Positions 2,295-48,891 of a stretch of DNA of 49,201 nucleotides are shown here, piece by piece. Origin of the DNA: Deltaproteobacteria bacterium. GTDB lineage: Bacteria; CG03; SLGR01; JBDRKX01. A model generated the notes under the pieces. The model saw only the letters and a list, made by a program, of their open reading frames with translations, was not told the DNA's origin and made no database searches. The DNA is taken from the NCBI GenBank assembly GCA_048634875.1, contig JAIVZN010000003.1, positions 1 to 49,201 on the forward strand, in the 5' to 3' direction. Within the stretch, counting starts at the first letter, position 1. Every line of letters begins with the position of its first letter. The position numbers and the translations under genes are program-made.

Positions 2295-2350
2295 GGTAAT
2301 AGGTAACGGGGAATGAAATCTAATACCTAATACCCATTACCCAATACCCA
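2295..2350. repeat. Heptamer inverted-repeat element (GGTAATA / TAATACC type)
   Basis: ggtaata ggtaacg gggaatg, a short spacer, then taatacc taatacc cattacc caatacc. Confidence 0.7.
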
Positions 2351-2368
2351 AATTTATGGGAGGAATAT

Positions 2369-2824
2369 ATGAATGATGATAGAAGGGTACATAGAAGACT
2401 TCAGCTTACCTTATCTATTGCCCAGCCAATAAGACTTGAAATTTCTTCGGATCAACATGAAGATATGATTCCCGGCATTATAGTTAATATATCGGCTGGA
2501 GGGATGGCTCTAATTGTGTTTCATAAGCTTCCTGCAAATAGTTTTATTGAATTTAACCTTGAATTCATGGGAATTGAAGAACATCTGAGAGGCGAGGTTG
2601 TACGGGAAGAAGAAAAATTTGGAAAAACTTTTTTAGTAGCTGTAAAATTTGACAGGGTTGTTGACAAATTGAAAAATACAATAGAGAAGATGGCAGAAGA
2701 TTTTGATATTTGCGAATTAAGATACCTTATGAAGGGAAAGGATGCCTGTTTTCCAGACTGCAGTTTTTATCCCTTATGCGCTAAAAGAATACGAAAAGAT
2801 AAAGGAGAGAAAGATACAAAATGA
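2369..2824 (+). CDS. PilZ-domain protein with C-terminal 4-Cys motif
   Basis: RRVHRR (RxxxR) and NISAGG (D/NxSxxG) c-di-GMP-binding motifs; tail C-x10-C-x3-C-x5-C. Confidence 0.8.
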   Translation: MNDDRRVHRRLQLTLSIAQPIRLEISSDQHEDMIPGIIVNISAGGMALIVFHKLPANSFIEFNLEFMGIEEHLRGEVVREEEKFGKTFLVAVKFDRVVDKLKNTIEKMAEDFDICELRYLMKGKDACFPDCSFYPLCAKRIRKDKGEKDTK

Positions 2825-3150
2825 ATCAATTTAAATTATTAATAATAATACTGTTTGCTTTTTTAGTTGCTATTTTTGCAGTTTCTAATCCGCAGAGCGC
2901 TTCGCTTTATTTTTTTGGAAAGAAAATTATCCCTGAGATTTCAATGGTTATTATTGTTTTAGGCTCTGTACTTATGGGAGTTATTCTTACAGCAATTCTC
3001 GGATTTTTATCTCAGGCAAAACTTAAAAACCAAATTTCAAAATTAACAAAAGAAAACGAACAGTTCAAAGAAAAAGAGGCAAAACTACAGTTAAAAATAA
3101 GAGCATTTGAAGAGAAGTTTGAAGAATCTGATAAAGAAAACGATTCCTAA
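2821..3150 (+). CDS. LapA family (DUF1049) membrane protein
   Basis: Two TM segments, AIFAVSN motif, C-terminal coiled coil. Confidence 0.75.
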   Translation: MNQFKLLIIILFAFLVAIFAVSNPQSASLYFFGKKIIPEISMVIIVLGSVLMGVILTAILGFLSQAKLKNQISKLTKENEQFKEKEAKLQLKIRAFEEKFEESDKENDS

Positions 3151-5736
3151 GTGGTTAAAGAAACACCTCTTGTAAAACAATATCAAAAGATAAAATCCCA
3201 GTATCCCGATACTTTTTTATTTTTCCGGTTAGGTGATTTTTATGAATTATTCGGAGACGATGCAATCCATGCTTCTAAAATCATGGAAGTTACTCTTACC
3301 AAGCGACAGGAGATGCCACTCTGTGGTGTGCCATACCATTCTGCTACAAAATATATTAAAAAACTATTAAATAAATCAAAAAGTGTAGCTATCTGCGAAC
3401 AGACAGAGGATCCGTCCGAGGCAAAAGGAATAGTTAAAAGAGAAGTAGTCAGAGTCATTACCCCGGGAACAATTATTGAAGATGAATTACTTTCTGAAGA
3501 CTCAAATAATTTTCTTGTTTCCATATCAAAAACTTTTTCAAAATTCGGAATTGTATTCCTGGATATTTCTACAGGGGATTTTATGGGGTGTGAGGTAGAT
3601 GATATCAACTCCCTGGAAGCAGAACTCTCACGCCAGAGGGTAAGGGAGGCGGTTATACCGGTTGACAGTGATGAGTTGGACAGTTTTTTAACAAAACAGT
3701 TTGCAGAGGTTACTGTAACTAAAAAGGACTCATGGTATTTCAATGTTAGTAAGGCAGGTGACAGTATAAAAAGTTACTTTAATCTTTCCACTTTAAAAGG
3801 CTGGGAACTTGATAAGTATCCTTCAGTAACTGCGGCATGCGGCGGACTGATTCAGTATTTATCAGAAACTCAAAAGGACAGAAAAGTCACCTTGAAGAAA
3901 TTCAGGATATATACAGTTGATGAAAAAATGATATTAGACAGAAAGACCCAGGAAAATCTTGAATTAGTAAAGAATTTACATGACGGTAAAAAGAAAAATA
4001 CTTTGTTTGAAGCGCTGGATTTCACAGATACAGCAATGGGAATGAGAAAACTTGTTCAATGGATTTTAGGGCCGCTTAAAGATATAGATAAAATAAGAAT
4101 GAGGCTGAACAGCGTTGAGGAATTAATTCAGAAACCAGAAATTTCTCTAACCATTTCGGAGCTTCTTAATAAAACAAGCGATATGGAGAGAATAATAGGA
4201 AAGGCAAATTTTGGAAGCTGTAATGCAAGGGACATGACAGGTTTAAAAGAATCACTTAAAATCATACCCGCGTTAAAAGAACTTCTTAAAAGCTTTAATT
4301 CCGGGCTGATAAAGTCTATGGAAGATAAACTTGCTCCGCTTAATAATATAGTTGATGAACTGGAAAAAGCAATAAAAGAACCGCCGCCCCTGACTGTTAA
4401 AGAAGGCAATATAATTAAAAGGGGCTACAGCGCCCGGCTTGATGAACTTATGGATATTACATCCGGGGATAAAAAGTGGGTTTTAGAACTTGAAGAAAGA
4501 GAACGCCGAAGATTAAATATCCCGAAATTGAAGGTAGGTTACAACAAAGTTCACGGTTACTACATTGAAATCACCAGGTTGCATTCAAATAAAGTTCCGC
4601 CTGAATACCGGCGTAAACAAACTCTAATTAATTCTGAAAGATATATTACAGAAGAACTTAAAAACAGGGAAAATTCAATACTTGGCGCTGAAGAAAAAAA
4701 AATAGCGCTTGAATACAAAATATTCTGCGGATTGAGAGATATGGTGTCGGGTTATAATCGGATGATACAGCAAAATTCGGAGATTATAGCTCAGATTGAT
4801 GTTTTAAGCAGTTTTGCCCGGGTTTCAAAAAAATATTCATATTCAAAACCGCATGTCGGCAACTTCAACGAGATTACTATTAAAGAAGGAAGGCACCCTG
4901 TAGTAGAAAAGAATATGGCAGTTCATGAGTTCATCCCGAATGATACGCTTTTAGATAAAGATGAGAATCAGATATTAGTAATAACAGGACCGAATATGTC
5001 AGGTAAATCAACATACCTCAAACAAACTGCCTTAATTACAATAATGGCTCAGATGGGTTGTTTTGTTCCTGCATCCCTGGCGCATATCGGAATAACGGAC
5101 CGGATATTTACAAGAATCGGAGCAAGCGAGAATCTTGCAGGCGGAGAATCCACATTTATGGTAGAGATGACCGAAGTTGCTTCAATCTTAAATAATGCTA
5201 CCGATAAGAGCCTGCTTGTTTTGGACGAGGTTGGAAGAGGAACTTCAACTTTTGACGGTATAAGTATTGCATGGGCGGTAATTGAAGAAATAGCCAGGAT
5301 TAAAGGAAGAACGCTTTTTGCCACACATTATTTTGAATTAACTGAACTTGCCGGATACATGAAAAATGTCAAAAATTATAATTTTGTAGTCCGTGAGTGG
5401 GAAGATAAAAAGAAAGTTGTTTTTTTAAGAAAATTACAACCCGGCAGTGCTGATAAATCATACGGCATACACTGCGCCCAGCTTGCAGGAGTACCTAAAA
5501 ATGTCATCCAAAGAGCATGGGACATTTTTAAAACACTACAGGAAGAACAATTTGATGATCAGGGACTGCCTAAAGCAGCGCATAACGCCCAAGAAAGCCA
5601 GTTGAGTTTTTCAGGTGAATTAAAGAAAGATGATGAATACAGGGAAAAAATTAAAAATATTGATTTAAACAGGATAACGCCAATAGAAATTTTAAACGAA
5701 ATGAAAAAATGGCAACTGGAGATTGAAAATGATTAA
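3151..5736 (+). CDS. mutS: DNA mismatch repair protein MutS
   Basis: FRLGDFYELF, Walker A TGPNMSGKST, DEVGRGTST, SYGIHCAQLAG; C-terminal clamp-binding QLSF. Confidence 0.97.
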   Translation: MVKETPLVKQYQKIKSQYPDTFLFFRLGDFYELFGDDAIHASKIMEVTLTKRQEMPLCGVPYHSATKYIKKLLNKSKSVAICEQTEDPSEAKGIVKREVVRVITPGTIIEDELLSEDSNNFLVSISKTFSKFGIVFLDISTGDFMGCEVDDINSLEAELSRQRVREAVIPVDSDELDSFLTKQFAEVTVTKKDSWYFNVSKAGDSIKSYFNLSTLKGWELDKYPSVTAACGGLIQYLSETQKDRKVTLKKFRIYTVDEKMILDRKTQENLELVKNLHDGKKKNTLFEALDFTDTAMGMRKLVQWILGPLKDIDKIRMRLNSVEELIQKPEISLTISELLNKTSDMERIIGKANFGSCNARDMTGLKESLKIIPALKELLKSFNSGLIKSMEDKLAPLNNIVDELEKAIKEPPPLTVKEGNIIKRGYSARLDELMDITSGDKKWVLELEERERRRLNIPKLKVGYNKVHGYYIEITRLHSNKVPPEYRRKQTLINSERYITEELKNRENSILGAEEKKIALEYKIFCGLRDMVSGYNRMIQQNSEIIAQIDVLSSFARVSKKYSYSKPHVGNFNEITIKEGRHPVVEKNMAVHEFIPNDTLLDKDENQILVITGPNMSGKSTYLKQTALITIMAQMGCFVPASLAHIGITDRIFTRIGASENLAGGESTFMVEMTEVASILNNATDKSLLVLDEVGRGTSTFDGISIAWAVIEEIARIKGRTLFATHYFELTELAGYMKNVKNYNFVVREWEDKKKVVFLRKLQPGSADKSYGIHCAQLAGVPKNVIQRAWDIFKTLQEEQFDDQGLPKAAHNAQESQLSFSGELKKDDEYREKIKNIDLNRITPIEILNEMKKWQLEIEND

Positions 5737-8331: not shown

Positions 8332-8369
8332 TATATTGTAAAGTGAATAAAGCGACGAATGGAGGTAAT

Positions 8370-11748: not shown

Positions 11749-11750
11749 AA

Positions 11751-24625: not shown

Positions 24626-24655
24626 TTTCCAGAGAAATTGAGAAATTTGGAGATG
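24626..24655. repeat. Half copy of the GAGAAATT octamer element
   Basis: tttccagagaaatt-gagaaatt-tggagat; the first 14 bp are identical to 39023-39036. Confidence 0.5.
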
Positions 24656-30563: not shown

Positions 30564-30574
30564 ATTTTTTAGAG

Positions 30575-31162: not shown

Positions 31163-31164
31163 CT

Positions 31165-31668: not shown

Positions 31669-32051
31669 TATTTGTTTTTATACATTTCTTCCGGTTCTTT
31701 TACTTTTTCATCTACTATCTTCCATTCGTCTTCATTCCATTTCCTGTAAAAACATGAGCGGTATCCTTTATGACAGGCGCAGTTTCCAGCCTGTTTAACT
31801 TTTAAAAGTATAGTATCCTTGTCACAGTCTATATATATTTCTTTAACTTCCTGAATATTACCTGATTCCTCGCCCTTAAGCCAGAGCTTATTGCGCGAGC
31901 GTGAAAAATAACAGGCTTTCTTTTCTTTAATTGTTACTTTCAGAGACTCTCTGTTCATATATGCAAGCATAAGAACCCTGTTATCTTTATAATCCTGAGT
32001 AATACATGGTATAATACCTTTTTCATTAAACTTTATATCATTTAAATTCAT
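31668..32051 (-). CDS. hisI: Phosphoribosyl-AMP cyclohydrolase (monofunctional)
   Basis: [29 protein letters not shown]. Confidence 0.95.
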
Positions 32052-32779
32052 ATAAATTCTCCGGCAACTTTTATTGCATCAGAAAGCACTATATCATTAG
32101 AGTAAAGAGCTTTCCCGATTATAACACCTGTTAAATTTTTAATCTTTAATTCTCTTAATTTTTTTATATCATTAATACAGGATACTCCGCCTGAAGCTAT
32201 TACAGAAATTTTTACACTGTCAGTAATTTCTTTAATTAACTCAAGATTAGTACCTTTAAGCATTCCGTCCTTTTTTATATCAGTTACTATAATCTCTGTT
32301 ACTCCCATATCTTCAGCTTCATTTGCCAATACCAGAGCAGTTTTTGCAGTAACATTTCCCCACCCCTCTACAGCTACTCTACCTGATGTAGAATCAATCC
32401 CGACTGTAATTCTTTCAGGCCACATTTTAAGAACTGATTTCAGGAACTCCCGGTTATGTATTGCTGAAGTTCCCATTATGATGCGATGTACCCCATTATC
32501 AATAAGAGCCTTTACTGTCTCATAATCTCTTATTCCGCCTCCAACCTGGACAGGAATATCAAGTTTTTTTATAATCTTCAATATTACCCTGATATTTTTC
32601 ATTTTTCCGTTAAATGCGCCATCAAGGTCAATTATATGTAACCTTTCAGCACCCTCGGACTGCCATTTTAAAGCCATGGAGAGCGGGTCATCTGAATAAA
32701 TGGTTTCATCTGATGCCCTGCCCTGCATTAACCTTACGCAGTTCCCGTTTTTTATATCAACAGCAGGTATTATAATCAT
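32048..32779 (-). CDS. hisA: ProFAR isomerase
   Basis: IIPAVD...G.CVRL.QG, DLDGA, QVGGGIR, TDI.KDG.L.G, ASGG. Confidence 0.95.
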
Positions 32780-32780
32780 G

Positions 32781-32902
32781 AAAATTCAAAGTTTAAAAAT
32801 CAAAATGCAAAATGACAATCCAAAATGTAAAATGTTTCTAAAATTTATTATTTTTGGATTTTGATATGTAATTTTGATTTTTGCATTTTGCATTTTGCAG
32901 TT
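32781..32902. repeat. Heptamer inverted-repeat element (CAAAATG / CATTTTG type)
   Basis: A-rich arm (aaaaatc aaaatgc aaaatg.. caaaatg taaaatg) and T-rich arm (attttg atttttg cattttg cattttg) fill the whole hisB-hisA spacer. Confidence 0.8.
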
Positions 32903-33493
32903 TTATATTGTTCCTTTGGTTGAAGGGATATCTTCTCCTGTTATCTTTACTGCCTGGCGCAGCGCCCGGGCCAGACCTTTAAAAACTGCCTCTGCTATGT
33001 GGTGGTTGTTATCATCTTTACTATGTTTGACACGGGTAATATGTATGGTAGCTTTTAAATTGTCAGATAATGCTTTCATAAATTCTTTTATTAAGGAAAA
33101 ATCAAAACCGGTTTTCCTGTCAAAACCGGCAAACAGGACACCATATACTAAATTCGGCCTTCCACCGATGTCTATTGCTACATCGCATCTTACCTCATCC
33201 ATTACCATCATTGCCCATCCATACCTTTCAATACCCCTGCGGTCGCCAAGTGCTTTATCTAATGCCTTGCCAAGAGTTATTCCTGTATCTTCAACTGTAT
33301 GGTGCAAATCCACCTGCGTATCACCTTTAGCATCTATTTCCATGTCTATCAGGGAATACTTAGCTAATAACTCAAGCATGTGAGTTAAAAACCCGTTAGG
33401 GGTATTTATATCCGATGCGCCTTTCCCGTCTAAGTTAACTTTAACATTTATCCGGGTCTCTTTAGTTTTCCTGTTTATTTTTGCTGTTCTCAT
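32903..33493 (-). CDS. hisB: Imidazoleglycerol-phosphate dehydratase
   Basis: R.TKET, HML, DLHHTVED.GI, MDE, NNHHIAEAVFKG, PSTKG. SD GAGGAG precedes ATG 33493. Confidence 0.95.
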   Translation of the reverse strand: MRTAKINRKTKETRINVKVNLDGKGASDINTPNGFLTHMLELLAKYSLIDMEIDAKGDTQVDLHHTVEDTGITLGKALDKALGDRRGIERYGWAMMVMDEVRCDVAIDIGGRPNLVYGVLFAGFDRKTGFDFSLIKEFMKALSDNLKATIHITRVKHSKDDNNHHIAEAVFKGLARALRQAVKITGEDIPSTKGTI

Positions 33494-33516
33494 GTTTTCT
33501 CCTCTTTCCATAAAGT

Positions 33517-33593
33517 GTCGTAAAGGGTAAACCGTAAAGTGTTTATAATCTATTACTCTTTACTCTTCATTCTTTACGCTTTACCCTTTACGC
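33517..33593. repeat. GTAAAGN / TTTACNC heptamer element, copy 1 (overlaps the hisC 3' end)
   Basis: cgtaaag ggtaaac cgtaaag, core, then tttactc .. tttacgc tttaccc tttacgc. The 28-bp core is identical to 48665-48692. Confidence 0.85.
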
Positions 33594-34620
33594 TTTTCAG
33601 GGTATCAATAAATTTCTTATTTTCTTCTTCTGTGCCAACTGTTACCCTGAGATATTCTCTCAGGCCCGGTGAATTGAACTCCCTGACACCTATCTTATTA
33701 TCTTTTAGTACTTTAAAAATTTTATTTATTTTATTAATCTTCATTAAAATAAAATTTGCTTCAGAAGGATAGGGAATTATACCTTCAATTTTCAGAAGTT
33801 CATTATACATTTTTTCCCTTGAACTTATTAATTTTCTAACCGTCCGGAGTACTTTTTTTCTATCTTCTAAAACTGTTTCCATGATTTTCTGATTTATGAT
33901 ACTTAAATTATATGGAAGCTGCGCTTTTCTTAAGCTTTTCATAAGCTCAGGATTACCTGCCATATAACCTGCCCTGATACCTGCAAGTGAAAATGCTTTT
34001 GAAAATGTTCTTAATATTAGAAGATTCGGATAACTCTTTATTTCATTCATGAAAGTTTTTCCTGAAAACTCAAAGTATGCTTCATCAATTACTATAAGCC
34101 CCTTGGAATGTTTCAGTATTTCTTTAATTTCCCCTTTAAAAAAACAATTACCTGTTGGATTATTTGGATACGCTATAAAAATTATATCCGGATTTTCATC
34201 AAGAATTTCCCGAACAGGCAATTTAAAGTCAAAATCTAACGGGATATCCCTAAATTTTGTATCTGTTAACTCTGATAATATCTTATACATTGCAAATGTA
34301 GGAGCAGGAGATACAACAACTTTGTTTCTTCCGCCACAGGCAATAAGTATTGTCAGTATCAACTCATCAGAACCATTACCCGCAAGAATATTATTCGGTA
34401 AAATATTACAGTAGTCTGCTATAAGTTTTTTAAGCCTTCTATACCCCGGGGCAGGATAACGGTTTAATTCTATACTGTTTAAAATATCATTTATTTTACA
34501 TCTCACATCAGGATGAACAGGGTAGGGGTTTTCCTGCGCATTAAGCTTTATTTCTCCTTCATCTACAGGCTTAACAGCGTAAGATTTTAATTTCTTAATT
34601 TTATTGGCTAAAAAATCCAT
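33574..34620 (-). CDS. hisC: Histidinol-phosphate aminotransferase
   Basis: NRYP, GNGSDE, PNNPTG, DEAY, RTFSKAFSLAGIRAG. Confidence 0.95.
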   Translation of the reverse strand: MDFLANKIKKLKSYAVKPVDEGEIKLNAQENPYPVHPDVRCKINDILNSIELNRYPAPGYRRLKKLIADYCNILPNNILAGNGSDELILTILIACGGRNKVVVSPAPTFAMYKILSELTDTKFRDIPLDFDFKLPVREILDENPDIIFIAYPNNPTGNCFFKGEIKEILKHSKGLIVIDEAYFEFSGKTFMNEIKSYPNLLILRTFSKAFSLAGIRAGYMAGNPELMKSLRKAQLPYNLSIINQKIMETVLEDRKKVLRTVRKLISSREKMYNELLKIEGIIPYPSEANFILMKINKINKIFKVLKDNKIGVREFNSPGLREYLRVTVGTEEENKKFIDTLKSVKGKA

Positions 34621-34655
34621 TTTTTTGCATTCCTAAAAGAGTTGCGCATATCCTC

Positions 34656-37060: not shown

Positions 37061-37073
37061 GTGTAAATAAAAC

Positions 37074-37880: not shown

Positions 37881-37895
37881 TGATTTAACCCATTT

Positions 37896-38960: not shown

Positions 38961-39027
38961 GGTTATTTCTTATAAAAATCGTCTATAAATTGTGTGCATT
39001 GTATCGGCAAAGCTTGCTTTTTTTTCC

Positions 39028-39114
39028 AGAGAAATTCAGATATTGAGAAATTTAGAGATTAGATTTTTTCATAAAACTTAATTACTTAATCTCTTAATCT
39101 CCTAATCTCTTCTC
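39028..39114. repeat. Octamer inverted-repeat element (GAGAAATT / TTAATCTC type)
   Basis: agagaaat tcagatat tgagaaat ttagagat ... ttaattac ttaatctc ttaatctc ctaatctc. Confidence 0.7.
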
Positions 39115-39117
39115 ATA

Positions 39118-39215
39118 TTGTAGTTGCCTGATAAATCAGGCTTTTGCAGAACAAGTGCGCTCTGTTAAAAAAATCTATTAAAACGACTTTTTCTTAACGC
39201 CTCGGGCAACTACAA
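39118..39215. repeat. GTAG-type REP/REPIN-like element
   Basis: Perfect 11-bp terminal IR ttgtagttgcc/ggcaactacaa; internal gcctgat-aa-atcaggc palindrome. Confidence 0.7.
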
Positions 39216-39216
39216 A

Positions 39217-39432
39217 TTATTTTTTGGATTTGGATTTCTTTCCGTACTTGCGGTGAAACTTTTCAACTCTGCCGGCAGAATCAATTAACTTTTGCTCCCC
39301 TGTATAGAATGGATGGCAGTTAGAGCATATCTCTACTTTGATATTTTTCTTTGTTGAGAAAGTTGTAAACTTTTCTCCGCAGGCACAGGTTACAGTTGCC
39401 TCATAAAGTTGTGGATGAATTTTCTTTTTCAT
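39217..39432 (-). CDS. rpmE: 50S ribosomal protein L31 (Zn-binding type)
   Basis: [27 protein letters not shown]. Confidence 0.97.
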
Positions 39433-39447
39433 AATTTAAAACCATTA

Positions 39448-39470
39448 TGTAAGAGGCCGAGCCTCTTACA
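39448..39470. terminator. Perfect hairpin between the vWA gene and rpmE
   Basis: tgtaagaggc-cga-gcctcttaca, 10-bp stem; lacks a clean U-tract. Confidence 0.45.
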
Positions 39471-39472
39471 CG

Positions 39473-41077
39473 CTACTCCTTGAATTTAAAATTCTTTTTT
39501 ATAGCCTGAGAGCGAACAGCATCCGAAATTACCTGATCCAGTGTCTGTTTTCCTCTTTCAGCAGTCATTTCCTTGCGTTTTTCAGCTATATACTTACGGC
39601 GTTCTTCATTAAGCTTATTTATTTTAATCTGTATTTCTTTTCTTTCTTTTATTTTGTTATTTACATAATCTATTCGTTCTTTTTCATTCATTGCCCGCAT
39701 TTCTTCAGGAAGTTCTTTTTCCGGAACTTTGGATACATCTACTTTACCGCTTTTAGCTTCATTTACAAGATCCCCCGGCGCTGCTTCGCTGTATTGAGCT
39801 TTTGCTTTAAACAGAGCGCGCTGCAAGAGAGAGCCTTCTTTTTTATGCTTTCCGGCTGCTTTATCCTGCGCAATCTGTTTCTCGGCTGCAACTTTTCCTT
39901 TGGCACCATAAAAGATAAATGTCCGGTTAAGCTGGGTACCCAAACGCTGGATTTCAGCATCCTGCGGCGTCTGGATAGCAGCAACCCTGACTTGCTGATC
40001 TATATTAAGGTACTCACCGTTACCTATATCTGCGCCTTCTTTCCATCTTGTAGCAATTCCCTGCTGTTTTCTTCCACAGAAAATTGTATTAACAAAAATA
40101 TCCTTATCAACGGCGCGAGTGACAGCTTCCCTGAAGTCCACAGGACCCTGAGTAAACGGCTCATTACCGGCAATAAAAATAACTTTATATATATCAGAAT
40201 GTTTATCCCACTGTAAATTATCTGCTGTATCCATAATAACTGCGCCGCAATATTCCTGCCCTCCGTTAGTTGTTAATGCAAACAACTGTTCAGAAACCAT
40301 ATCCAGGTCAACAGTAAATGGAAGAATTTGCCTGAGATAATTTTCTTCCCTGCTTAACCTGGAATTACCGTATTCATAAAGGGCAACCTGAATTGTCGGA
40401 TTATTGCCTTCCTTTTCAGAAGAGGACAGTTCATTGACAATTCTCCAGAGCTGGGTTTTTGCCTGATTAATGAGACCATCCATACTGCCGGAGGTATCTA
40501 AAAGGATAGCAAGCTGAATTAATGATTTACCGCTAAGTTTGTCATTGCCGTTCTCCGGGTCCGGGCGGTCTGCTTTATAATCGCTGGGTTTTACAGGTGA
40601 ATCCTGCCATGTCCGTTTTATTTCTACCCTGCCGGCAGCAAGTATTTTTCCTGTCTCTGTGTGGATAATCCGCGCATTGACTTCTGTCTTTTCTTTTTTA
40701 AGATCATTTAAAGTGCCTGTAACTATGCCGCCAACCCCGAGAACCTTTCCAAGCTCCTTTGTTAAATTCTCATCTATTATGCCTGTTCTTTCAAGGCTCA
40801 TTTCGTCAAGCACCTTATTTAGCAGATGTCTTTCAACTACTTCTACTCTTTCTGTTTTTACAAAGTAAGTAGTGAGCCTTTCCTGAACAAGAGAAGAACC
40901 ACTCGAAATAAATCCATTATGATATGGAAAGTTAAGCACTGCAATTTTTTTGTTTGGCATGTTCTCAACTTTCTTTGCCATTTTTTTTGCCATTTTTCTT
41001 AGAGGGTCAGCACTGACATTAGAACATAATATGCCGAACAACATAAAAACAGCAAATATCTTAAAACTCTTTTTCAA
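39473..41077 (-). CDS. Secreted FlgO/CsgG-like + von Willebrand A domain protein
   Basis: Signal peptide; KIAVLNF..VVER..G.VLGV..IVTG..ARII..ETG.IL; MIDAS DTSGS; C-terminal coiled coil. TTG start with SD GGAG. Confidence 0.8.
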   Translation of the reverse strand: MKKSFKIFAVFMLFGILCSNVSADPLRKMAKKMAKKVENMPNKKIAVLNFPYHNGFISSGSSLVQERLTTYFVKTERVEVVERHLLNKVLDEMSLERTGIIDENLTKELGKVLGVGGIVTGTLNDLKKEKTEVNARIIHTETGKILAAGRVEIKRTWQDSPVKPSDYKADRPDPENGNDKLSGKSLIQLAILLDTSGSMDGLINQAKTQLWRIVNELSSSEKEGNNPTIQVALYEYGNSRLSREENYLRQILPFTVDLDMVSEQLFALTTNGGQEYCGAVIMDTADNLQWDKHSDIYKVIFIAGNEPFTQGPVDFREAVTRAVDKDIFVNTIFCGRKQQGIATRWKEGADIGNGEYLNIDQQVRVAAIQTPQDAEIQRLGTQLNRTFIFYGAKGKVAAEKQIAQDKAAGKHKKEGSLLQRALFKAKAQYSEAAPGDLVNEAKSGKVDVSKVPEKELPEEMRAMNEKERIDYVNNKIKERKEIQIKINKLNEERRKYIAEKRKEMTAERGKQTLDQVISDAVRSQAIKKNFKFKE

Positions 41078-41095
41078 AACTCTCCTTCCACTTTA

Positions 41096-41170
41096 GTCGT
41101 AAAGTGTAAAGGGTTGGAAAAATTTTTCTATTTGATTTTCTTTATACTCTTCACTCTTTACGCTTTACCT
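41096..41170. repeat. GTAAAGN / TTTACNC heptamer element, copy 2
   Basis: gtcgtaaag tgtaaag gg ... ttcactc tttacgc tttacc; 3 nt from the tRNA-Lys CCA. Confidence 0.75.
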
Positions 41171-41173
41171 ATT

Positions 41174-41249
41174 TGGTGAGCCAGGAAGGATTCGAACCTT
41201 CGACCCACGCCTTAAAAGGGCGTTGCTCTGCCAACTGAGCTACTGGCCC
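41174..41249 (-). tRNA. tRNA-Lys(TTT)
   Basis: GGGCCAG..TAGCTCAGTTGG..ACGCC-CTTTTAA-GGCGT..GTTCGAATC..CTGGCTCACCA; 76 nt, encoded CCA. Confidence 0.97.
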
Positions 41250-41263
41250 ACCTAACTGTTTTA

Positions 41264-42802
41264 TTAGTCAACCTTAACGCTGTTTACGCCTTCTATCGTT
41301 TTCAATGATTTTAGTTTTTCAATGATCTCCTGTGAAATCTCCTGATCAACACCTATCACGGTAACAGCCTGTCCGCCGGCAGATTTCCTGCCTACTTCCA
41401 TACTCCCGATATTTATACCGTATTCTCCTAAAATTGTTCCGATATGGCCTATTACTCCAGGTATGTCGAAATTTTTTATAATCAGAAGATTTCCGTTTAA
41501 GGGTATATCTAAGATATATCCATTTATTCCTGTTAACCTCGTAATATCTCCTATTACGCTTCCGGAAATATTTAAATCATCCCCTAAAGTTATGTTTATA
41601 TCCCATGGCAAACCCTCGTGAGTTACCTTCTGTTTTATTATCTCAATACCTTTTTCTTCTGCTACTAAAACTGCATTGATAAAATTTATACCTTCATTAA
41701 ATTGAGAAAGATATCCATTCAAGATAGTCCTGATAATAGCATCTTCGGATTTCTCCTCTTTATAACTTATTAATATCCTCTCTGTCAAATGTTTTGAAAG
41801 CTGCCCCAAAAGCATTCCAAGGTTACTGGCAAGTTTTTCAAGAGGCAATTCTAATTCCACGCTGCAAATATTAACTGCATTTATAATTTTCCCGTCTTTC
41901 AGGTAATCTATTGCCTGTTTGACAATTTCAATTGAGACTCTCTCCTCGGCTTCAGTAGTTGAAGCGCCAAGATGCGGAGTATGAATAATGCCGTCAACTG
42001 AAAAAACAGGCGAATCTGTAGTTGGCTCTGTTTCATACACATCAACAGCAGCGCCTCTTATCTGCCTGTTTTTTACCGCTTCTGATAAAGCAGCCTCATT
42101 TACAATTCCTCCCCTGGCGCAATTTATTAAAATTGCCTCTTTTTTCATTTTTGATAAAGCGCTGCTGTCAATTAAATTTTTTGTCTTTTCATTTAAAGGC
42201 ACATGTATTGTTATAACATCTGAGGCTTCAAACAGTTCATTTAACTCTACAAGTTTTGCTTTTGCTTCTTTTGCAATATCCTGCGATGTATAAGGGTCAT
42301 ACACAATTATTTTCATGCCAAAGCCAATGGCTCTCTTAGCAACTTCTATACCAATCTTTCCCAGCCCTATAATTCCAAGTGTTTTCCCGTATATCTCAGC
42401 ACCCTTATACTTTTTCTTATCCCACCTGCCTTCTACCAAAGCTTGATGAGACTGCGGAATATTCCTCAAGGTACTTAGAATCAATGCCCATGTATGTTCG
42501 CAGGCTGAAATTGTATTACCTGAAGGAGTATTCATAACAACAATACCTTTCCTGGTAGCAGCTTCAACATCTACATTGTCCACTCCAACACCTGCCCTGC
42601 CAATAACCTTTAAATTTCCTGCATTTTCAATTATATCTTTTGTTACATTTGTCCCGCTTCTTATGATAAGCCCGTCATAATTTACTATTTCTTTTTTAAG
42701 CGCCTCTCCATCAAGCGAAACATCCATTTTTACATAAAGACCCGCATCTTCTAAACTCCTGATACCTTCGGTAGACAAACTATCTGTTATTAAAACCTTC
42801 AT
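41264..42802 (-). CDS. serA: D-3-phosphoglycerate dehydrogenase (with ACT domain)
   Basis: GRAGVGVDNVD, GLGKIG, NCARGG, TPHLGAST; C-terminal DIPGVIG ACT domain. ATG 42802. Confidence 0.95.
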   Translation of the reverse strand: MKVLITDSLSTEGIRSLEDAGLYVKMDVSLDGEALKKEIVNYDGLIIRSGTNVTKDIIENAGNLKVIGRAGVGVDNVDVEAATRKGIVVMNTPSGNTISACEHTWALILSTLRNIPQSHQALVEGRWDKKKYKGAEIYGKTLGIIGLGKIGIEVAKRAIGFGMKIIVYDPYTSQDIAKEAKAKLVELNELFEASDVITIHVPLNEKTKNLIDSSALSKMKKEAILINCARGGIVNEAALSEAVKNRQIRGAAVDVYETEPTTDSPVFSVDGIIHTPHLGASTTEAEERVSIEIVKQAIDYLKDGKIINAVNICSVELELPLEKLASNLGMLLGQLSKHLTERILISYKEEKSEDAIIRTILNGYLSQFNEGINFINAVLVAEEKGIEIIKQKVTHEGLPWDINITLGDDLNISGSVIGDITRLTGINGYILDIPLNGNLLIIKNFDIPGVIGHIGTILGEYGINIGSMEVGRKSAGGQAVTVIGVDQEISQEIIEKLKSLKTIEGVNSVKVD

Positions 42803-42809
42803 TGCACCT

Positions 42810-45131
42810 TCAGAACACATGCTGAATAACCTCCTTGAAGTTTTCCACAGGAATAAGATTTAAATTTCTTTTTATTTTATTTGGTATCTCTGCTAAATTT
42901 TTCTTGTTTTCAGCAGGAAATATAACTGTTTTAAAACTATCTCTGTGCGCAGCAAGCATCTTTTCCTTAAGGCCTCCAATTTCTAAAATTTTTCCACTTA
43001 ATGTAATTTCTCCTGTCATTACCACTTCTTTCTTAACAGGTTTATTTGTAATTACAGACAGAAGCGCCGTACATATTGTAATCCCTGCGGATGGCCCTTC
43101 CTTCGGGACAGCTCCTGCAGGCACATGGATATGTATATCCTGAGTTTTATAAAAATCAGGAGGGACTTTTAACTTTTTAGCATTTGCCCTTATAAAACTT
43201 ACTGCGGTTTGAGCGGATTCTTTCATTACATCTCCAAGTGTCCCTGTCAGCTTGAGTTTGCCATCGCCCGGCATTAAAGATACTTCAATTGACAACGACT
43301 CTCCGCCATTTTGAGTCCATGAAAGCCCGGCAGCAACACCGATGTCATTCTGATAGGCGCGGAGACATGAGTATTTAGGCACTCCAAGATATTTTGCAAC
43401 TATCCCGCTTGTTATTTTAGCTGAACTTATTTTTCGTGTAGCAACTTTCTGGGCAATTTTTCTCAGCACCTTTGCTATTTCCCTTTCAAGGTTCCTTACA
43501 CCTGCTTCTCTTGTGTAATTTTCAATTATGTGTTTAATAGAACCATCGGTAAAAGAAAACTTGTCTGTCTTTAACCCATTTTCCTTTATCTGTTTTAGTA
43601 TTAAAAATCTCTGAGCTATGCTTATCTTTTCATCTAAAGTATATCCGGGAAATTCTATCTGCTCCATTCTGTCAAGCATGGCAGGGGGAATAGTTGATAT
43701 AGTATTGGCAGTTGTAATAAACATTACATCAGAGAGATCAAATTCCACTTCAAGGTAGTGATCGCTGAAATTTTTATTTTGTTCAGGATCCAGCGCCTCT
43801 AGCAGCGCTGAAGATGGATCGCCTCTGAAATCCTTGCCCATCTTATCAACTTCATCCAGTAAAAACACAGGATTCTTGCTTCCTATTTTTGTAATGGACT
43901 GTATTATTCGCCCCGGCAAAGCCCCGATATAAGTGCGACGGTGTCCCCTTATTTCTGCTTCATCCCTGATGCCGCCTAAAGAAACTCTTGTAAATTTCCT
44001 GTTTAAAGCATGCGCTATTGACCTGCCGAATGAAGTCTTTCCTGTACCCGGTGGACCCACGAAACAAAGTATAGGGGTCTTTAATTTCTTTGATAATTTT
44101 GAAACTGCAAGATATTCAAGAATTCTCTCTTTTGCCTCTTCTAAACTATGGTGTTCGGATTCAAGAATATCTTCAGCTTTTTTAAGGTTTATATTATTTG
44201 GCGTCTTTTTCTTCCATGGCAGTTTTACCAGCCAGTCTAAATATGTCCTGACTACAGTTCCCTCAGGTGAAAATGGCATCATCTTTTCTAATCTTCCTAA
44301 TTCTTTTCTTGCCTGGGTTTTTGACTCTTCCGACATGCCTGATTCATTTATCTTTTCTGAAAGTTCATTTATTTCATCCTTCTGGAGATCTTTCCCATCA
44401 AGTTCTTTCTTTATTGCCTTCATCTGCTCGGATAAATAATATTCTTTCTGAGATTTTTCTATCTGATTTTTAACCTTTCCGTCTATTTCTTTTTGTATGA
44501 CAAGAATATCAATTTCTTTTTTCAGGATTACTGTAAGCCTCTCAATCCGCTTTACCGGGTTAAACTGTTCTAATAACCTCTGCGCCTGTTGTTTTTTAAG
44601 CCTGATGTGGCTGATGATAACATCTGTTAACTTATCCGGGTTATCAATCTCATCTACAAGAGAATAGGAACCGAAATCAATTGTAGGATTCAGTTTAACA
44701 TAATCTTCAAATAAATTAGAAACTCTTCTCATTATTGCCTGAAGATGGTTATCTGCAATCTCAGGCATCTCTGCAGAAGGATATTCAATTTCAGCTTCAT
44801 AATAGTTTTCGTTAGGAATAAATCTTTTTATCCTTATTCTTTTTTCCCCTTCAATAAGAATTCTCGCGCTGCCATCAGGGAGGTTTAAGGTTTGAATTAT
44901 GCTTCCAATTATACCTACCCTGTAAATGTTTTCACCTGTTGGATTATCATCGTAAATATTCTTCTGAGTTACAACAATTATCCTGTGATTATCCCCTGTT
45001 GCTCTCTGCACAGCATTTAAAGAACGCCTTCTACCGATTGCAAGAGGAACAAGCATGTAGGGAAAAATAACAATATCCCTTACAGGAAGCAACGGGTAAA
45101 TATTAGCTTTAGTAGTTTTTCTTGCCATCAT
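42810..45131 (-). CDS. lon: ATP-dependent protease La (LonA)
   Basis: [46 protein letters not shown]. Confidence 0.97.
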
Positions 45132-46396
45132 GCCGTTTTAAGTATTGGTTCGGATTTCCTTTCAATTACATCTTTATCTATAATACACTCAATAATATTT
45201 TCTCTATCCGGAATATCATACATCAATTCAAGCATAAAACTTTCTATAATAGTGCGCAAGCCTCTTGCTCCACGGGACTTTTCTTTTGCAAGAAATGCTA
45301 TTTTGCGGATAGCATCATCTGTAAAAGTTAATTTTATACCTTCCATAGCAATAAGTTTCTGATATTGCTTTGCTATTGAATTTTTTGGTTTTATAAGTAT
45401 TTCAGCCAGGTCATTCTCATTTAAATCATGAAACGGGCCCGTAACAGGAAGCCTTCCAACAAGTTCAGGTATTAAACCATACTTTATCAGGTCTTCCGGC
45501 TCAATGTACTTAAAAATCTCTCCTACATCTTTAGATTTGCCCTTCACTAACTTTGCGCCAAAGCCAACCCTTTTTTCACTTAATCTGTTAGATATAATAT
45601 CGTCTAATCCGCTAAACGCACCTCCGCAAATGAAAAGTATGTTTGTTGTATCTACCTGAATAAACTTCTGTTGAGGATGTTTTCTTCCTCCCTGCGGATG
45701 GACATTTGCGACAGTTCCCTCTAAAATCTTGAGTAACGCTTGCTGAACCCCCTCTCCGGAAACATCCCTTGTAATTGAGGGAGTCTCTGATTTTCTTGAT
45801 ATTTTGTCAATTTCATCTATATAAATTATTCCCCATTCTGTCAGGTTTTTATTAAAAGAGGCACTCTGCAGGAGCCTCACAAGTATATTCTCCACATCTT
45901 CTCCAACATAACCGGCTTCAGTAAGAGTAGTAGCATCTGCTATTGCAAACGGAACATCAAGTATTCTTGCCAAGGTTTTCGCAAGCAGTGTCTTGCCTGT
46001 TCCTGTTGGCCCGACAAGCAAAATATTTGATTTTTCTAGTTCCACATTTTTATCAAAAGTTACTTTTCTTTTCTCTTGCGCTTTTACCTTGAAAGGCCCT
46101 TTACCGCTTATCCCGGCTCTTTTGTAGTGATTATATACTGCAACTGAAATAATTTTTTTTGACTCTTCTTGCCCGACTACATATTCATCAAGAATGGTTT
46201 TTATTTCACTTGGTTTAGGAACTTCCCTTATATTTCTCTGTCTTTCCCTGTCCAGTGCATCGTGAATCAAGTGATACGAAGTATCTATGCACTCTGCACA
46301 GATATAAGCTCCCTTGCCGCCTACAAGTTTTACTGCTTCTCGCTCAGTTTTACCACAAAAAATACAATTCTTTATTTCATATTTACCATCAGCCAC
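45128..46396 (-). CDS. clpX: ATP-dependent Clp protease ATP-binding subunit ClpX
   Basis: C4 zinc finger, [29 protein letters not shown] loop. Confidence 0.97.
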
Positions 46397-46409
46397 TTTA
46401 ATTATCCCC

Positions 46410-47030
46410 CTATGTTTTTTTTATTTCTTTACGGGTTGATATTACTTCATCTACAATACCATACTCCTTTGCCTCAGAAGCAGTCATAAAGAAATCTCTC
46501 TCTGTATCTTCTTCCACCTTTTTCATATCCTGCCCTGTATGTTCTGCCAATATTTTATTTATAGTATCCTTCATTCTCATTATTTCCTGAGCCTGAATTC
46601 CGATATCTGTTGCCTGCCCCTGAACACCGCCAAGCGGCTGATGTATCATTATGCGGGAATTTGGTAATGCGTATCTTTTCCCTTTATCTCCTGCCGCAAG
46701 TAAAAGCGCTGCCATAGATGTTGCCTGTCCCATGCATATTGTTGCAATAGACGGGTTAATATACTGTATGGTATCATATATGGCAAGTCCGGAAGTAACC
46801 ACCCCACCGGGAGAATTTATGTATAGTGAAATCTCTTTATCCGGATTTTCTGCTTCTAAAAAGAGTAATTGCGCAATTATTAAATTGGCAATAGTATCAT
46901 CTACAGGCGTACCTACAAAAATTATTCTGTCTTTCAGTAATCTTGAAAAAATATCATATGCTCTTTCCCCACGCTGACTCTTTTCTACCACCATTGGAAC
47001 AAGCTGCATAACTTCATTTTTTTTATCCAT
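46410..47030 (-). CDS. clpP: ATP-dependent Clp protease proteolytic subunit
   Basis: [24 protein letters not shown] (Ser), MIHQP (His), ERD. Confidence 0.97.
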
Positions 47031-47039
47031 TATATCTCC

Positions 47040-48293
47040 TCACTCCTCATTCTTATTAATTCTTATTTTAGCATTTTCTTTAATAAAATCAAAAACTTTC
47101 TTTGCAAAAATGACATTATCGTCTATGTATTTCCTTGCTTTTTCCCTGTTATCTTCACCAAGAAATTTCAGTATCTTTTCTTCTTCTTCTTTCCTGTCTA
47201 TGTCAGTAACCTCAATACTTTCCTGCCTGGCTATAGATGAAAGTAAAAGTCCTGCTTTTATTTCTCTTATTACTTTTTCTCTTATTTTTATTTCATCTAT
47301 CTTTGATGGGTCTCCGCCCTGCTTCTCAATATATTCTGCCATTTGTTTTTTATCTCTCTGAAGATTCTCTTCAACTAAACCCTCTGGTACTTCAAAATCA
47401 TGCCTGGTTATAAGATATTCTATAATCTGGTTTTTTAATTCATCTTCTGAAGTTTTTTCCATCTGTTTTTTTAAATTTTCCCTTATATTATCGTTTAATT
47501 TATCTACAGTATCAAAACCTAAACTTTCTGCAATTTCCTGTTCATCAGGGAACTTCTTTTCTTTAATCTCTTTTACTTTAACATTAAAATGTGCAAGTCT
47601 GCCCTTTAATTCATCTTCCGGAAAATCATCAGGAAAATTATAATCAAATTCTTTTATTTCACCTTTTTTCATACCTTTAATATTTTTATCAAACTCAGGA
47701 AGATGAAAATTGCCGCCAATCTCAATAAATGAATTCTCTGGTAAAACAGAATTTACTTCTTTAGAATCTATGAAAACCTTAGAACTAATTACAACGAAAT
47801 CACCATTGGAAGCACTTCCATCTTTTGCTTTAATTACAGCATTCCTTTCCCTGAAAGCCTGGATTGTATTTTTAACATCTTTTTCCTTAACAGAATTCCC
47901 TTTTTTTTCTAACTTTATCTTCTTATACTTTTTCACCTGTACTTCAGGATATATTTCTACTTCAACTTTAAACTTAAGAGGTTTATTATTCTCTAAACTG
48001 TAATCAGTTATCTTAGGAGTAATGGCTGGATTTATGTTCTCCTTCTCTAAAACATCGCCAAGCACATCAGGCAATAATTTATTTACCAATTTCTGTTTTG
48101 CTTCTTCTTTGTGACGCTCCTTAATAAGATTAATTGGAACCTTTCCTTTTCTAAATCCAGAAATACGAATTTCTTTTTTTATCTCCCCGTATATTTTTTC
48201 AAACTCTATGTCTATTTTTTTCCGGTGGACTTCAATATCAAGCGTTATTAAACAACTGGTTTTTTTTTCTACTTTATAAGTTAAATTTTCCAT
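47040..48293 (-). CDS. tig: Trigger factor
   Basis: GFRKGKVP ribosome-binding motif, FKBP-like middle domain; directly upstream of clpP. Confidence 0.93.
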   Translation of the reverse strand: MENLTYKVEKKTSCLITLDIEVHRKKIDIEFEKIYGEIKKEIRISGFRKGKVPINLIKERHKEEAKQKLVNKLLPDVLGDVLEKENINPAITPKITDYSLENNKPLKFKVEVEIYPEVQVKKYKKIKLEKKGNSVKEKDVKNTIQAFRERNAVIKAKDGSASNGDFVVISSKVFIDSKEVNSVLPENSFIEIGGNFHLPEFDKNIKGMKKGEIKEFDYNFPDDFPEDELKGRLAHFNVKVKEIKEKKFPDEQEIAESLGFDTVDKLNDNIRENLKKQMEKTSEDELKNQIIEYLITRHDFEVPEGLVEENLQRDKKQMAEYIEKQGGDPSKIDEIKIREKVIREIKAGLLLSSIARQESIEVTDIDRKEEEEKILKFLGEDNREKARKYIDDNVIFAKKVFDFIKENAKIRINKNEE

Positions 48294-48356
48294 CGTTTAT
48301 TTTTCCTTCCCACTTTTACTCTCAACTTTTCATTTGTAAATAACTTTTTCCTCGCC

Positions 48357-48453
48357 TGTCACATCAGGATTGCGTGGCAATCTCAATCGGGATTAGTTCC
48401 TTCGCTTTGCTGAGCCGCTAAAATTCCTCACGCTGAGGTTCCTCGCAATGACA
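48357..48453. repeat. Degenerate palindromic repeat ending in CCTCGCAATGAC
   Basis: tgtca...gtggcaatctc..gggatt...cctcgcaatgaca; resembles GTCATTGCGAG...CTCGCAATGAC-type dispersed palindromes (from memory). Confidence 0.45.
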
Positions 48454-48500
48454 TTTTCACCCAGCTCCTGCGTGCAGAGGCTGGGTTCATTCCCTTTTGT

Positions 48501-48523
48501 GACAGGCAAGATGCCTGTCCTAC
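48501..48523 (-). repeat. GTAG-type REP
   Basis: Minus strand GTAG-GACAGGCA-TCT-TGCCTGTC, 8-bp stem. Confidence 0.65.
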
Positions 48524-48553
48524 AAAGCTGGCATATCCGTTTCACTTATTTTA

Positions 48554-48636
48554 TGGTGTCGCGGGCGAGATTTGAACTCGCACTCAAAAGAACCAGGTCC
48601 TAAACCTGGCGCGTCTGCCAATTCCGCCACCGCGAC
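48554..48636 (-). tRNA. tRNA-Leu(TAG)
   Basis: GTCGCGG..GGCGGAATTGGCAGACGC..CCAGG-TTTAGGA-CCTGG, short variable arm, GTTCAAATC..ACCA; 83 nt. Confidence 0.96.
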
Positions 48637-48641
48637 ATAAA

Positions 48642-48738
48642 TCGTAAACCGTAAAGAGTAAAGCGTTTATAATCTATTACTCTTTACTCTTCTCGCTTTA
48701 CCCTTTACCCTTTACCCTTCACCCTTCACCCTTCACGA
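48642..48738. repeat. GTAAAGN / TTTACNC heptamer element, copy 3
   Basis: tcgtaaac cgtaaag agtaaag, core, then (tttaccc)3 (ttcaccc)2 ttcacga. Confidence 0.9.
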
Positions 48739-48742
48739 ATTT

Positions 48743-48818
48743 TGGTAGGCTGCACAGGAATCGAACCTGTAACCTACGGATTAAGAGTCCGGCGCTCTAC
48801 CTATTGAGCTAGCAGCCC
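48743..48818 (-). tRNA. tRNA-Lys(CTT)
   Basis: GGGCTGC..TAGCTCAATAGG..CGGA-CTCTTAA-TCCG..GTTCGATTC..GCAGCCTACCA; 76 nt. Confidence 0.96.
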
Positions 48819-48825
48819 GTCCTAA

Positions 48826-48891
48826 TCGTAAAGCGTGAAGCGTAAAGAGTAAAATTTTTTCAATTTACGCTTCACGCTTTACCCTTCACGA
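48826..48891. repeat. GTAAAGN / TTTACNC heptamer element, copy 4
   Basis: tcgtaaag cgtgaag cgtaaag agtaaa, AT loop, then tttacgc ttcacgc tttaccc ttcacga. Confidence 0.9.

Follow-up and report, generated by a model that had tools for sequence, protein, structure and literature searches.

Hairpin elements with tandem 7- and 8-nucleotide arms in operon and tRNA spacers of a deltaproteobacterial genome, and their probable relation to IVP-family genes

Introduction

Contig JAIVZN010000003.1 of a Deltaproteobacteria bacterium (GenBank assembly GCA_048634875.1) carries short intergenic elements in which a G/A-rich run of tandem 7- or 8-nucleotide (nt) units is followed by a short A+T loop and a complementary C/T-rich run. 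The whole contig, 49,201 nt long and C3 among the contigs of the assembly, is called the window here. Its elements are probably gene-less, strain-variable members of a superfamily of hairpin elements, the full-length form of which carries a gene of the four-helix-bundle family 23S_rRNA_IVP (Pfam PF05635, NCBIfam TIGR02436; hereafter IVP). Periodic arms accompany IVP genes in this genome and in others, arms of one window family enclose the decayed remnant of such a gene, and the elements recur as dispersed copies that differ in presence between strains. They are classed here as elements like the intervening sequences (IVSs) of 23S rRNA and like MITEs (miniature transposable elements with inverted repeats).

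The assembly comprises 1.85 Mb in 163 contigs, with 35.8% G+C and a completeness rated at 97%. A previous reading of the window, made from its letters alone (the original prediction), had described these elements and had suggested that similar heptamer arms flank four-helix-bundle genes. Here, we describe the elements, their copies and their variation, and weigh the explanations that have been considered for them.

Elements of the window

Eight sites were studied by sequence reading and with the Tandem Repeats Finder (TRF). The two-armed design was found at seven of them, in elements of 60-125 nt. The sites, and the two gene clusters that each host a pair of elements, are as follows.

2295..2350, strand not assigned: GGTAATA-type element, flanked by a radical-SAM (MiaB-like) and a PilZ gene
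24626..24650, plus strand: solo 5′ arm of the 8-mer family, GAGAAATT x2 after TTTCCAGA, in a divergent spacer upstream of the open reading frame (ORF) at 24666-25304
32781..32903, minus strand: CAAAATG-family element filling the hisB-hisA spacer
33517..33596, minus strand: CGTAAAG-family element in the hisC-hisB spacer
39021..39118, minus strand: 8-mer element, GAGAAATT / AATCTCTT, upstream of the release-factor gene (37896-38960)
41096..41170, minus strand: CGTAAAG-family element between tRNA-Lys(ttt) and a VWA-domain ORF (39473-41077)
48637..48742, minus strand: CGTAAAG-family element filling the spacer from tRNA-Leu(tag) to tRNA-Lys(ctt)
48819..48895, minus strand: CGTAAAG-family element filling the spacer from tRNA-Lys(ctt) to tRNA-Arg(tct)
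32048..34620, minus strand: hisC-hisB-hisA, host operon of two elements (Pfam His_biosynth, IGPD and Aminotran_1_2; gene order kept in 12 relatives)
48554..48971, minus strand: tRNA cluster Arg(tct)-Lys(ctt)-Leu(tag), host of two elements (ARAGORN, Rfam; order kept in relatives)

Inverted repeats had been predicted at all eight sites, and this stands for the seven two-armed ones. At 24626-24650 the sequence read at the site holds no complementary arm, and TTTCCAGAGAAATT is common to this arm and the 5′ end of the 39021 element; for these two reasons the site is taken as a solo 5′ arm. Its 5′ end also matches copies on contigs C21 and C59, and a blastn search of its own genome with the arm returned only itself. 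The four units of the original prediction likewise reduce to three dispersed families (CAAAATG, CGTAAAG and the 8-mer), while the genome as a whole holds at least eight. The fourth, the GGTAATA element, is a singleton with no match in its own genome other than itself (blastn); its 5′ arm is a degenerate GGTAATA present about twice, and its 3′ arm consists of AATACCC x4.3.

The purine-rich arm comes first in all seven two-armed elements. Because the design is an inverted repeat, the 5′ arm is the purine-rich one on whichever strand it is read, which makes this a true property of the element. The same seven lie between co-directional genes or tRNAs (radical-SAM|PilZ, hisB|hisA, hisC|hisB, upstream of the release-factor gene, tRNA-Lys|VWA ORF, tRNA-Leu|Lys and tRNA-Lys|Arg), and in terms of gene direction the predicted location thus holds for seven of the eight sites, with the divergent spacer at 24626 as the exception. 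The final codons of hisC, its stop codon included, lie in the 5′ arm (on the transcribed strand) of the 33517-33596 element. An Rfam search of the window returned four tRNAs and nothing else, with no rRNA, and an IVP-family ORF is present at none of the eight sites, as had been stated.

IVP genes between periodic arms

The genome has two intact PF05635 genes, on C33 and C107, one of which is classed as TIGR02436, and both have periodic arms. The C33 gene separates the permease and ATPase genes of an ABC-2 transporter, and is flanked by GTTGAAAN x4 and a complementary run, with its ATG overlapping the last unit. The C107 gene has an 8-mer arm on one side; on the other, the contig ends. When widely spaced arm pairs were searched for, a further locus emerged at C13:12420-12763, where CAAAATG-family arms, near-identical to those at 32781, surround a loop of 278 nt. 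A frame fragment within this loop matches both PF05635 (positions 67-105, E 4.9e-4) and TIGR02436 (with E 3.2e-5, which is at the cut-off); judged by these matches, the loop holds a decayed, frameshifted and shortened IVP gene.

The association extends well beyond this genome. In the phylum, the IVP family is present in six of 26 genomes, and about 14 of 17 loci, assessed by eye, have a purine-rich tandem 5′ arm with a 3′ complement; one of these armed loci (L056) is a CAAAATG-type copy. A scan across phyla, with one genome per species and a three-sequence IVP alignment as query, gave 80 loci (L057-L136) from many bacterial and some archaeal phyla, which sample one subfamily because of the narrow query. 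Inverted arms scoring at least 12 were found in 57 of the 76 loci with full flanks, compared with 0 for shuffled flanks and 15 for direct repeats, and the 5′ arm was purine-rich in 49 of those 57. Among the 53 loci with arms of at least 21 nt, the best period was 7 in 37, 8 in 13 and 9 in 3. IVP genes situated between two co-directional neighbours point in the same direction as these in 50 of 51 cases.

Metagenomes provide a link to the GTAAAG-type unit. Of 80 metagenome loci with three GTAAAGN units, 15 have a 3′ partner arm no more than 150 nt away and three have one at 150-620 nt; in one locus the pyrimidine-rich arm comes first. Both loci with arms 390-440 nt apart contain an IVP ORF in the loop. 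Together with C33, C107, the C13 remnant and the armed loci of other phyla, these two bear out the suggestion that heptamer arms surround four-helix-bundle genes. The further proposal, that the window elements are 'empty copies' of an IVP cassette, is a fair description of the CAAAATG and CGTAAAG families, for which it is supported, and a plausible one of the remaining unit types; no gene-carrying partner for the GGTAATA and GAGAAATT units was found among the 97 IVP loci searched.

One candidate role for the arms was set aside. An excess of stops in arms over shuffled arms (17/53 versus 6.6) had suggested 'frame-proof stops' around the gene, a view that the 5′ arm fails when units are permuted instead: in the gene direction, at the same 53 loci (L057-L136), a stop codon occurs in the unit of the 3′ arm in 35 versus 20.0 expected, and in that of the 5′ arm in 33 versus 34.2.

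Abundance, families and copies

Periodic arms are in strong excess over chance across the genome, and so are their inverted pairs. TRF reported 372 period-7 and 219 period-8 rows, compared with 74-82 and 88-105, respectively, in three order-3 Markov simulations. Our own detector found 243 period-7 and 124 period-8 arms, with 20-34 and 16-29 in five simulations. Of these 367 arms, 105 have an inverted partner within 160 nt (0, 0, 0, 1 and 0 in the simulations), 63 a direct partner and 13 a mirror partner. The genome-wide scan that had been put forward as a check on the original prediction has thus come out in its favour.

The arm pairs merge into 74 loci of at least eight unit families, the families being assigned by eye. 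The number of loci is a lower bound, because the detector threshold missed two of the window elements. In 69 of the 74, purines are more frequent in the 5′ half than in the 3′ half; the purine-first rule, noted originally for the window elements, has five exceptions genome-wide; these are compound elements, elements with G/T-rich arms, or probably false loci. By blastn, the CAAAATG family has about 29 loci in the genome, the CGTAAAG family about 22 and the 8-mer family about 18.

Loci far apart share more than their units. Copies of the 39021 element on C5 and C16 are 92-94% alike (blastn), the C21, C27 and C59 copies of the 8-mer family are nearly identical, the CGTAAAG copies at 33541 and 48664 have about 25 nt of loop in common, and members of a further family, GATTGAA, have a conserved tail. 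In nested composites, a GATTGAA hairpin lies within GAGGAAT arms, with identical junctions in four of nine copies; it is also found within a CAAAATG element and a GGAGACT array. Unit number differs between copies. Since non-periodic loops and ends recur at distant loci, and nested composites recur with them, the elements are copies rather than products of local slippage. The features of a MITE (short, gene-less, with terminal inverted repeats and many dispersed copies) are present in the three dispersed families and are not found together in the 2295 element.

Orientation markers within the detector loci point in the same direction for the GATTGAA tail (7/7), the AAGTTAT loop (5/5), the 8-mer family loop (3/3) and the CGTAAAG loop (4/4), and are mixed for the CAAAATG loop (4 versus 5). 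They amount to a hint, as the markers are short and also match coding sequence.

Gain and loss between strains and relatives

Contigs of three sequencing runs from three other studies (X2, X3 and X4), diverged by 2-3.5%, were aligned to positions 30000-49201. The CAAAATG element is missing from a 28-kb X4 contig, on which 32783 is joined to 32903 via seven letters; between hisA and hisB, X2 has 61 other letters in place of the window's 121. The same X4 contig joins 33508 to 33594 via 38 other letters, which replace the CGTAAAG element. In this 38-letter substitute, a small G+C hairpin precedes a CATTTTGAATTTTGAAT run that resembles a CAAAATG-type 3′ arm. Contigs of X2 and X3 join 39020 to 39119 via three letters and lack the 8-mer element. 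On an X4 contig, the alignment is interrupted from 48637 to 48739. Since the elements at 32781, 33517 and 39021 are missing or replaced in strains 2-3.5% apart, elements are gained and lost, and at these three sites they display both the presence/absence polymorphism anticipated by the original prediction and the insertion polymorphism of a MITE.

The nearest relatives compared belong to other genera, at about 65-69% DNA identity. The hisB-hisA spacer is 6 nt or less in 10 of the 12 relatives with hisC-hisB-hisA, and non-periodic, with 58 and 193 nt, in the other two. No such element was found in the tRNA-Leu-Lys spacer of the 10 relatives in which this pair is adjacent, or in the tRNA-Lys-Arg spacer of the eight in which that pair is. 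Other repeats occur in the same tRNA spacers of related genera: direct repeats of about 60-70 nt at L027:1672-1873 and L028:1280-1503, and a one-armed TAAAACAG x3 array at L034:1308-1500.

Genomic context and folding

Genomic context was assigned with crude gene calls (greedy longest ORFs and ARAGORN). Fifty of the 74 loci are located in co-directional spacers, five in divergent and none in convergent ones; 10 lie at contig ends and nine overlap ORFs. The genome background is 1295 co-directional, 126 divergent and 122 convergent spacers, from which the chance of finding no convergent spacer among the 55 classifiable loci is about 0.01 by simple arithmetic. Many elements occupy their spacer to within a few bases. 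They are scattered over ordinary operons, without an array arrangement of the kind that integron attC sites would suggest for comparison. Intrinsic terminators were rejected as an identity for the elements, given that none of the 55 classifiable loci is convergent and that a T run is absent after the stems that were read, no dedicated terminator scan having been made.

RNA folds of the transcribed strand were compared with 200 dinucleotide shuffles. All four CGTAAAG elements fold far better than their shuffles, with z-scores of -7.51 (33517), -4.12 (41096), -5.23 (48637) and -6.60 (48819) and 0/200 shuffles as good; their stems span 19-20 bp, that of the 48819 element being 19 bp. The solo arm at 24626 has a z-score of -1.3. 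Strong stems are thus demonstrated in four of the seven two-armed elements, the A+T-rich families folding no better than shuffles; foldable hairpins, predicted throughout, are therefore confirmed for the CGTAAAG elements (z -4.1 to -7.5), and strong stems are not for the three A+T-rich ones (z -1.05 to -1.9). The genome has an RNase III gene, at C8:2330-3010. A CGTAAAG-family hairpin (C8:2272-2347) lies directly at its 3′ end.

A proposed life cycle and the evidence against it

In its full-length form, such an element would carry in its loop a promoter-less IVP gene that starts at the 5′ arm or just past it. This design would be that of the ORF-bearing 23S rRNA IVSs, but sited in operon and tRNA spacers. 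The insert would be transcribed together with its host operon, and its arms could then form a stem, at least 15-20 bp long, that loops the insert out. Cleavage of this stem, probably by RNase III, would free the flanking genes or tRNAs, so that the insert is tolerated. Slippage may make and lengthen the periodic arms and keep them pairable in several registers. The original prediction took one design with different units as a sign of a dedicated, undescribed generating mechanism. The single architecture with different units is upheld here; distinct units may simply be distinct element lineages, for which a separate generating mechanism per unit would not be needed, and the architecture itself has been described before (see below).

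Several observations weigh against this reading. Of the 80 metagenome GTAAAGN arrays, 61 have no partner arm. A search for units beside IVP genes, allowing up to three mismatches in three units, found GGTAATA, GAGAAATT and strict CGTAAAG at none of the 97 loci; CAAAATG was found at one, and the non-window units AAGTTAT, AAGTAATA and GTTGAAA at four, one and one. Only two intact IVP genes and one remnant stand against at least eight unit families, in a genome rated 97% complete. With respect to target-site duplication, the joints between strains carry 3, 7 or 38 other letters and none is clean, a possible GTT(T) duplication at 32781/32903 being seen between strains that are 2-3.5% apart. At the level of RNA, the CAAAATG element folds with a z-score of -1.9 (8/200 shuffles as good), the GGTAATA element with -1.49 (20/200) and the 8-mer element at 39021 with -1.05 (26/200). 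A comparison of sense and antisense folding was rejected as a test of RNA-level selection: sense folds better in 47 of 66 loci and likewise in 146 of 229 arm-free co-directional spacers, a shared bias that renders the asymmetry uninformative. Pieces from the metatranscriptome run X12, present as contigs only, end at repeats (e.g. at 32902), where contigs break anyway. One 8-mer family, AAGTAATA / ATGGAAAT followed by TTATTACT, is read in frame. Finally, the loops also host other repeats: the GATTGAA hairpin, and one that is about 290 nt long. Since loops receive these, the IVP gene could be a passenger rather than the parent.

This last point underlies an explanation that is unlikely overall. 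The elements could be independent small mobile or recombining palindromic repeats, in which the short form is primary, not 'empty', and the IVP gene a frequent passenger of the loops. Loops do act as landing sites, for the GATTGAA hairpin in GAGGAAT, CAAAATG and GGAGACT elements and for the ~290-nt repeat in two cases; within this genome, an IVP gene is lacking for the majority of unit families, and metagenome GTAAAGN loci include 15 short hairpins among 80 compared with two that carry the gene. Passengers of random hairpins, however, would not be expected to be armed at anything like the frequency of 57 in 76, nor to have their start codon fused to the end of the 5′ arm, as is the case in the copies read. 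The decayed IVP remnant between CAAAATG arms and the occurrence of related units with related IVP genes (the TAAG-core 7-mers of L041, L042, L057 and L058) also speak against a passenger.

A second explanation, which we regard as quite improbable, holds that the arrays arose by local replication slippage and were kept as regulatory or protein-binding sites, or as hairpins that stabilise or process mRNA. Heptamer repeats are over-represented in many bacteria, for which polymerase slippage has been proposed (work cited in passages of PMC4692102 and PMC4679880), the corresponding passage on Geobacter reads its paired sites as sites for integration host factor (IHF)/HU or other global regulators (PMC2700814), and unit number varies between copies here. 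Slippage in place, however, does not account for non-periodic loops and ends shared by distant loci, for nested composites copied whole, for the presence or absence of whole elements between strains 2-3.5% apart, or for the emptiness of the same sites in all relatives examined; and only five of the 55 classifiable loci are in divergent spacers, where promoters would lie.

It is highly improbable that the elements are of the REP/REPIN (repetitive extragenic palindrome) type, moved by the one Y1 transposase gene of the genome that is classed as a REP-associated tyrosine transposase (RAYT; C5:6916-7251, L004), or were retro-copied by its one reverse transcriptase: both were rejected as movers, as the RAYT gene lies between non-periodic inverted repeats of its own, about 30 nt long (AGTATCAGAACCGTCCCCAT) and unlike any 7/8-mer arm, and the sole reverse transcriptase, a group II intron maturase, is broken by a frameshift. 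A transposase-coding parent with matching ends, as a MITE would have, was likewise not found, the gene between like arms coding for a four-helix bundle and the ends of the Y1 transposase gene being different.

Returning to elements descended from an IVP-carrying form, one may ask what the IVP protein does. A speculative answer, rather unlikely in our estimation, is that it is the element's own factor: it would recognise the periodic arms, each 7-8-nt unit perhaps by a single subunit, and would help the cassette to be copied or inserted into transcribed spacers and the loops of existing hairpins. A Xanthomonas member of the family is reported as a homopentamer (cited in a passage of PMC4990558). 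If this were so, the elements would form a class of mobile element that does without a transposase, would explain why heptamer repeats have long been seen in excess in bacteria, and would be a ready source of new signal peptides.

The kinship proposed here would connect the excess of 7-base intergenic repeats, the paired 'regulator sites' of Geobacter and Xanthomonas, and the widespread IVP family, which was first met inside rRNA IVSs and has no known function. Should the stems be cut in RNA, the elements would bring about a strain-specific rewriting of operon and tRNA-precursor processing. On the practical side, they are sharp strain markers; they break assemblies, many copies lying at contig ends; and they mislead start-codon calls, can provide stop codons, as for hisC, and in one family provide whole signal peptides.

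Relation to known systems

Small gene-less inverted-repeat inserts that lie in transcribed spacers and vary between strains are known from Neisseria (Correia/NEMIS) and from enterobacteria (ERIC/IRU). RNase III cleaves NEMIS hairpins within mRNA. Both groups have ordinary inverted-repeat arms, not tandem 7/8-mers, and defined target duplications, and we know of no four-helix-bundle gene partner for either. The present elements resemble them in being gene-less and strain-variable, and differ in their tandem 7/8-mer arms and their IVP partner. With REP/REPIN sequences they have in common that they are short, dispersed and palindromic and lie between genes; unlike them, REPs are short, non-periodic and flank their transposase gene, and the 7/8-mer arms do not flank the RAYT gene.

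The cyanobacterial short tandemly repeated repetitive (STRR) sequences are intergenic heptamers that form mostly direct arrays. They had been named as the established analogue, which holds for the tandem heptamers; the analogy is a loose one because STRR arrays are direct. Three tandem heptanucleotides are mentioned for Calothrix PCC 7601 (PMC4692102), and the TAACTGA repeats of the Beggiatoaceae form 169 direct sets and one inverted set in a Beggiatoa genome, according to the relevant passage of PMC4679880. STRR and TAACTGA repeats share with the present elements the strong excess of tandem intergenic heptamers, often just upstream of start codons; unlike them, the present elements are defined by a paired inverted arm (genome-wide, 105 inverted versus 63 direct partners).

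The closest parallels are in print for 23S rRNA and for intergenic paired sites. The IVS of Coxiella burnetii has a 28-bp stem with tandem GACAGAT heptamers on its 5′ side, just upstream of an IVP-family ORF (S23p); RNase III cuts within the stem, and heptamer number varies between strains, as the passage on this IVS reports (PMC4990558). ORF-bearing 23S rRNA IVSs also occur in Leptospira and Salmonella (cited in the same passages of PMC4990558). Like the rRNA IVSs, the present elements have terminal inverted repeats forming a long stem, in the CGTAAAG elements at least, the stem being weak in the A+T-rich families. Unlike them, they are located in mRNA and tRNA spacers and not in an rRNA helix, many unit families occur in one genome, and the window copies lack an ORF, PF05635 being found in the loop elsewhere in the genome (two copies and one remnant). 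Excision by RNase III, as in the rRNA IVSs, would be expected by analogy with Coxiella and from the RNase III gene of the genome.

Paired opposite-strand arrays of 7-9-mers are already in print for Geobacter and Xanthomonas. The 2009 description of Geobacter metallireducens lists tandem octa-, nona- and heptanucleotide sites that pair up across the two strands with variable spacing, in sets of 24, 21 and 8 pairs, one pair being between proB and proA (passage in PMC2700814), and 70-75 convergent pairs of GGGAATC arrays were described in Xanthomonas in 2015 (passage in PMC4692102). As far as these passages go, the architecture is the same, with several unit types per genome. In them the sites are taken as regulator-binding sites or G-quadruplex formers, and neither an IVP link nor whole-element strain polymorphism is mentioned (PMC2700814, PMC4692102). 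IVP genes have been noticed within cas operons (passage in PMC3936711). A full-text literature search found no paper tying IVP genes to periodic inverted arms or describing gene-less derivatives.

A translated family

Nine ORFs of unrelated Pfam families start within a AAGTAATA / ATGGAAAT element, with a near-identical leader of 8-nt periodicity, MKSNMEIWKY... They are located at C9:8103-9536, C119:1489-3549, C122:2406-3854, C7:9442-10221, C75:427-1674, C71:3895-4974, C109:2432-3439, C157:1-1077 and C9:22278-23414. The leader continues with a Lys-rich stretch and a hydrophobic run, and has an Ala-X-Ala-like end; by this layout it is a predicted signal peptide, portable between exported proteins. 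The proteins that bear it include a FadL-like protein with LysM, TPR proteins, AhpC/redoxin, LolA-like, CBM11/30 and PorP/SprF-like proteins. A purine-rich arm followed by a pyrimidine-rich one translates into a charged and then a hydrophobic stretch.

Because this family is read as the signal peptide of nine exported proteins, not every element of this kind is a non-coding hairpin. Its orientation is uniform in 11 of the 11 classifiable loci among 12 detector loci that carry the marker, the gene-carrying C107 copy included, and this uniformity is explained by translation of the family. The C107 IVP gene has its upstream arm and first eight bases in common with the leader ORFs. The 'ATGAAAAG' junction of the family was considered as a relic of an IVP start codon; it is better explained as the start of the common signal peptide, and is not counted in favour of 'empty copies'.

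Other repeats of the genome

The dispersed repeat of about 290 nt contains nested inverted repeats, and has blastn matches on more than 25 contigs, often at contig ends. Copies include C8:5340-5645, C108:161-446, C55:5941-6223, C17:12736-13013 and C63:6488-6726, among others, and a search of Rfam gave no family match for it. It sits in the loops of heptamer-armed hairpins on C8 and C63; nine of 13 full copies are without periodic arms. The RAYT gene with its AGTATCAGAACCGTCCCCAT repeats at C5:6916-7251 represents a separate REP system in the same genome.

At the end of the window, downstream of tRNA-Arg(tct), positions 49030-49201 have copies that are 89-90% alike at C141:3298-3601 and C1:65503-65673. 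One of these copies lies about 1.2 kb from the frameshifted group II intron reverse transcriptase at C1:63697-64332.

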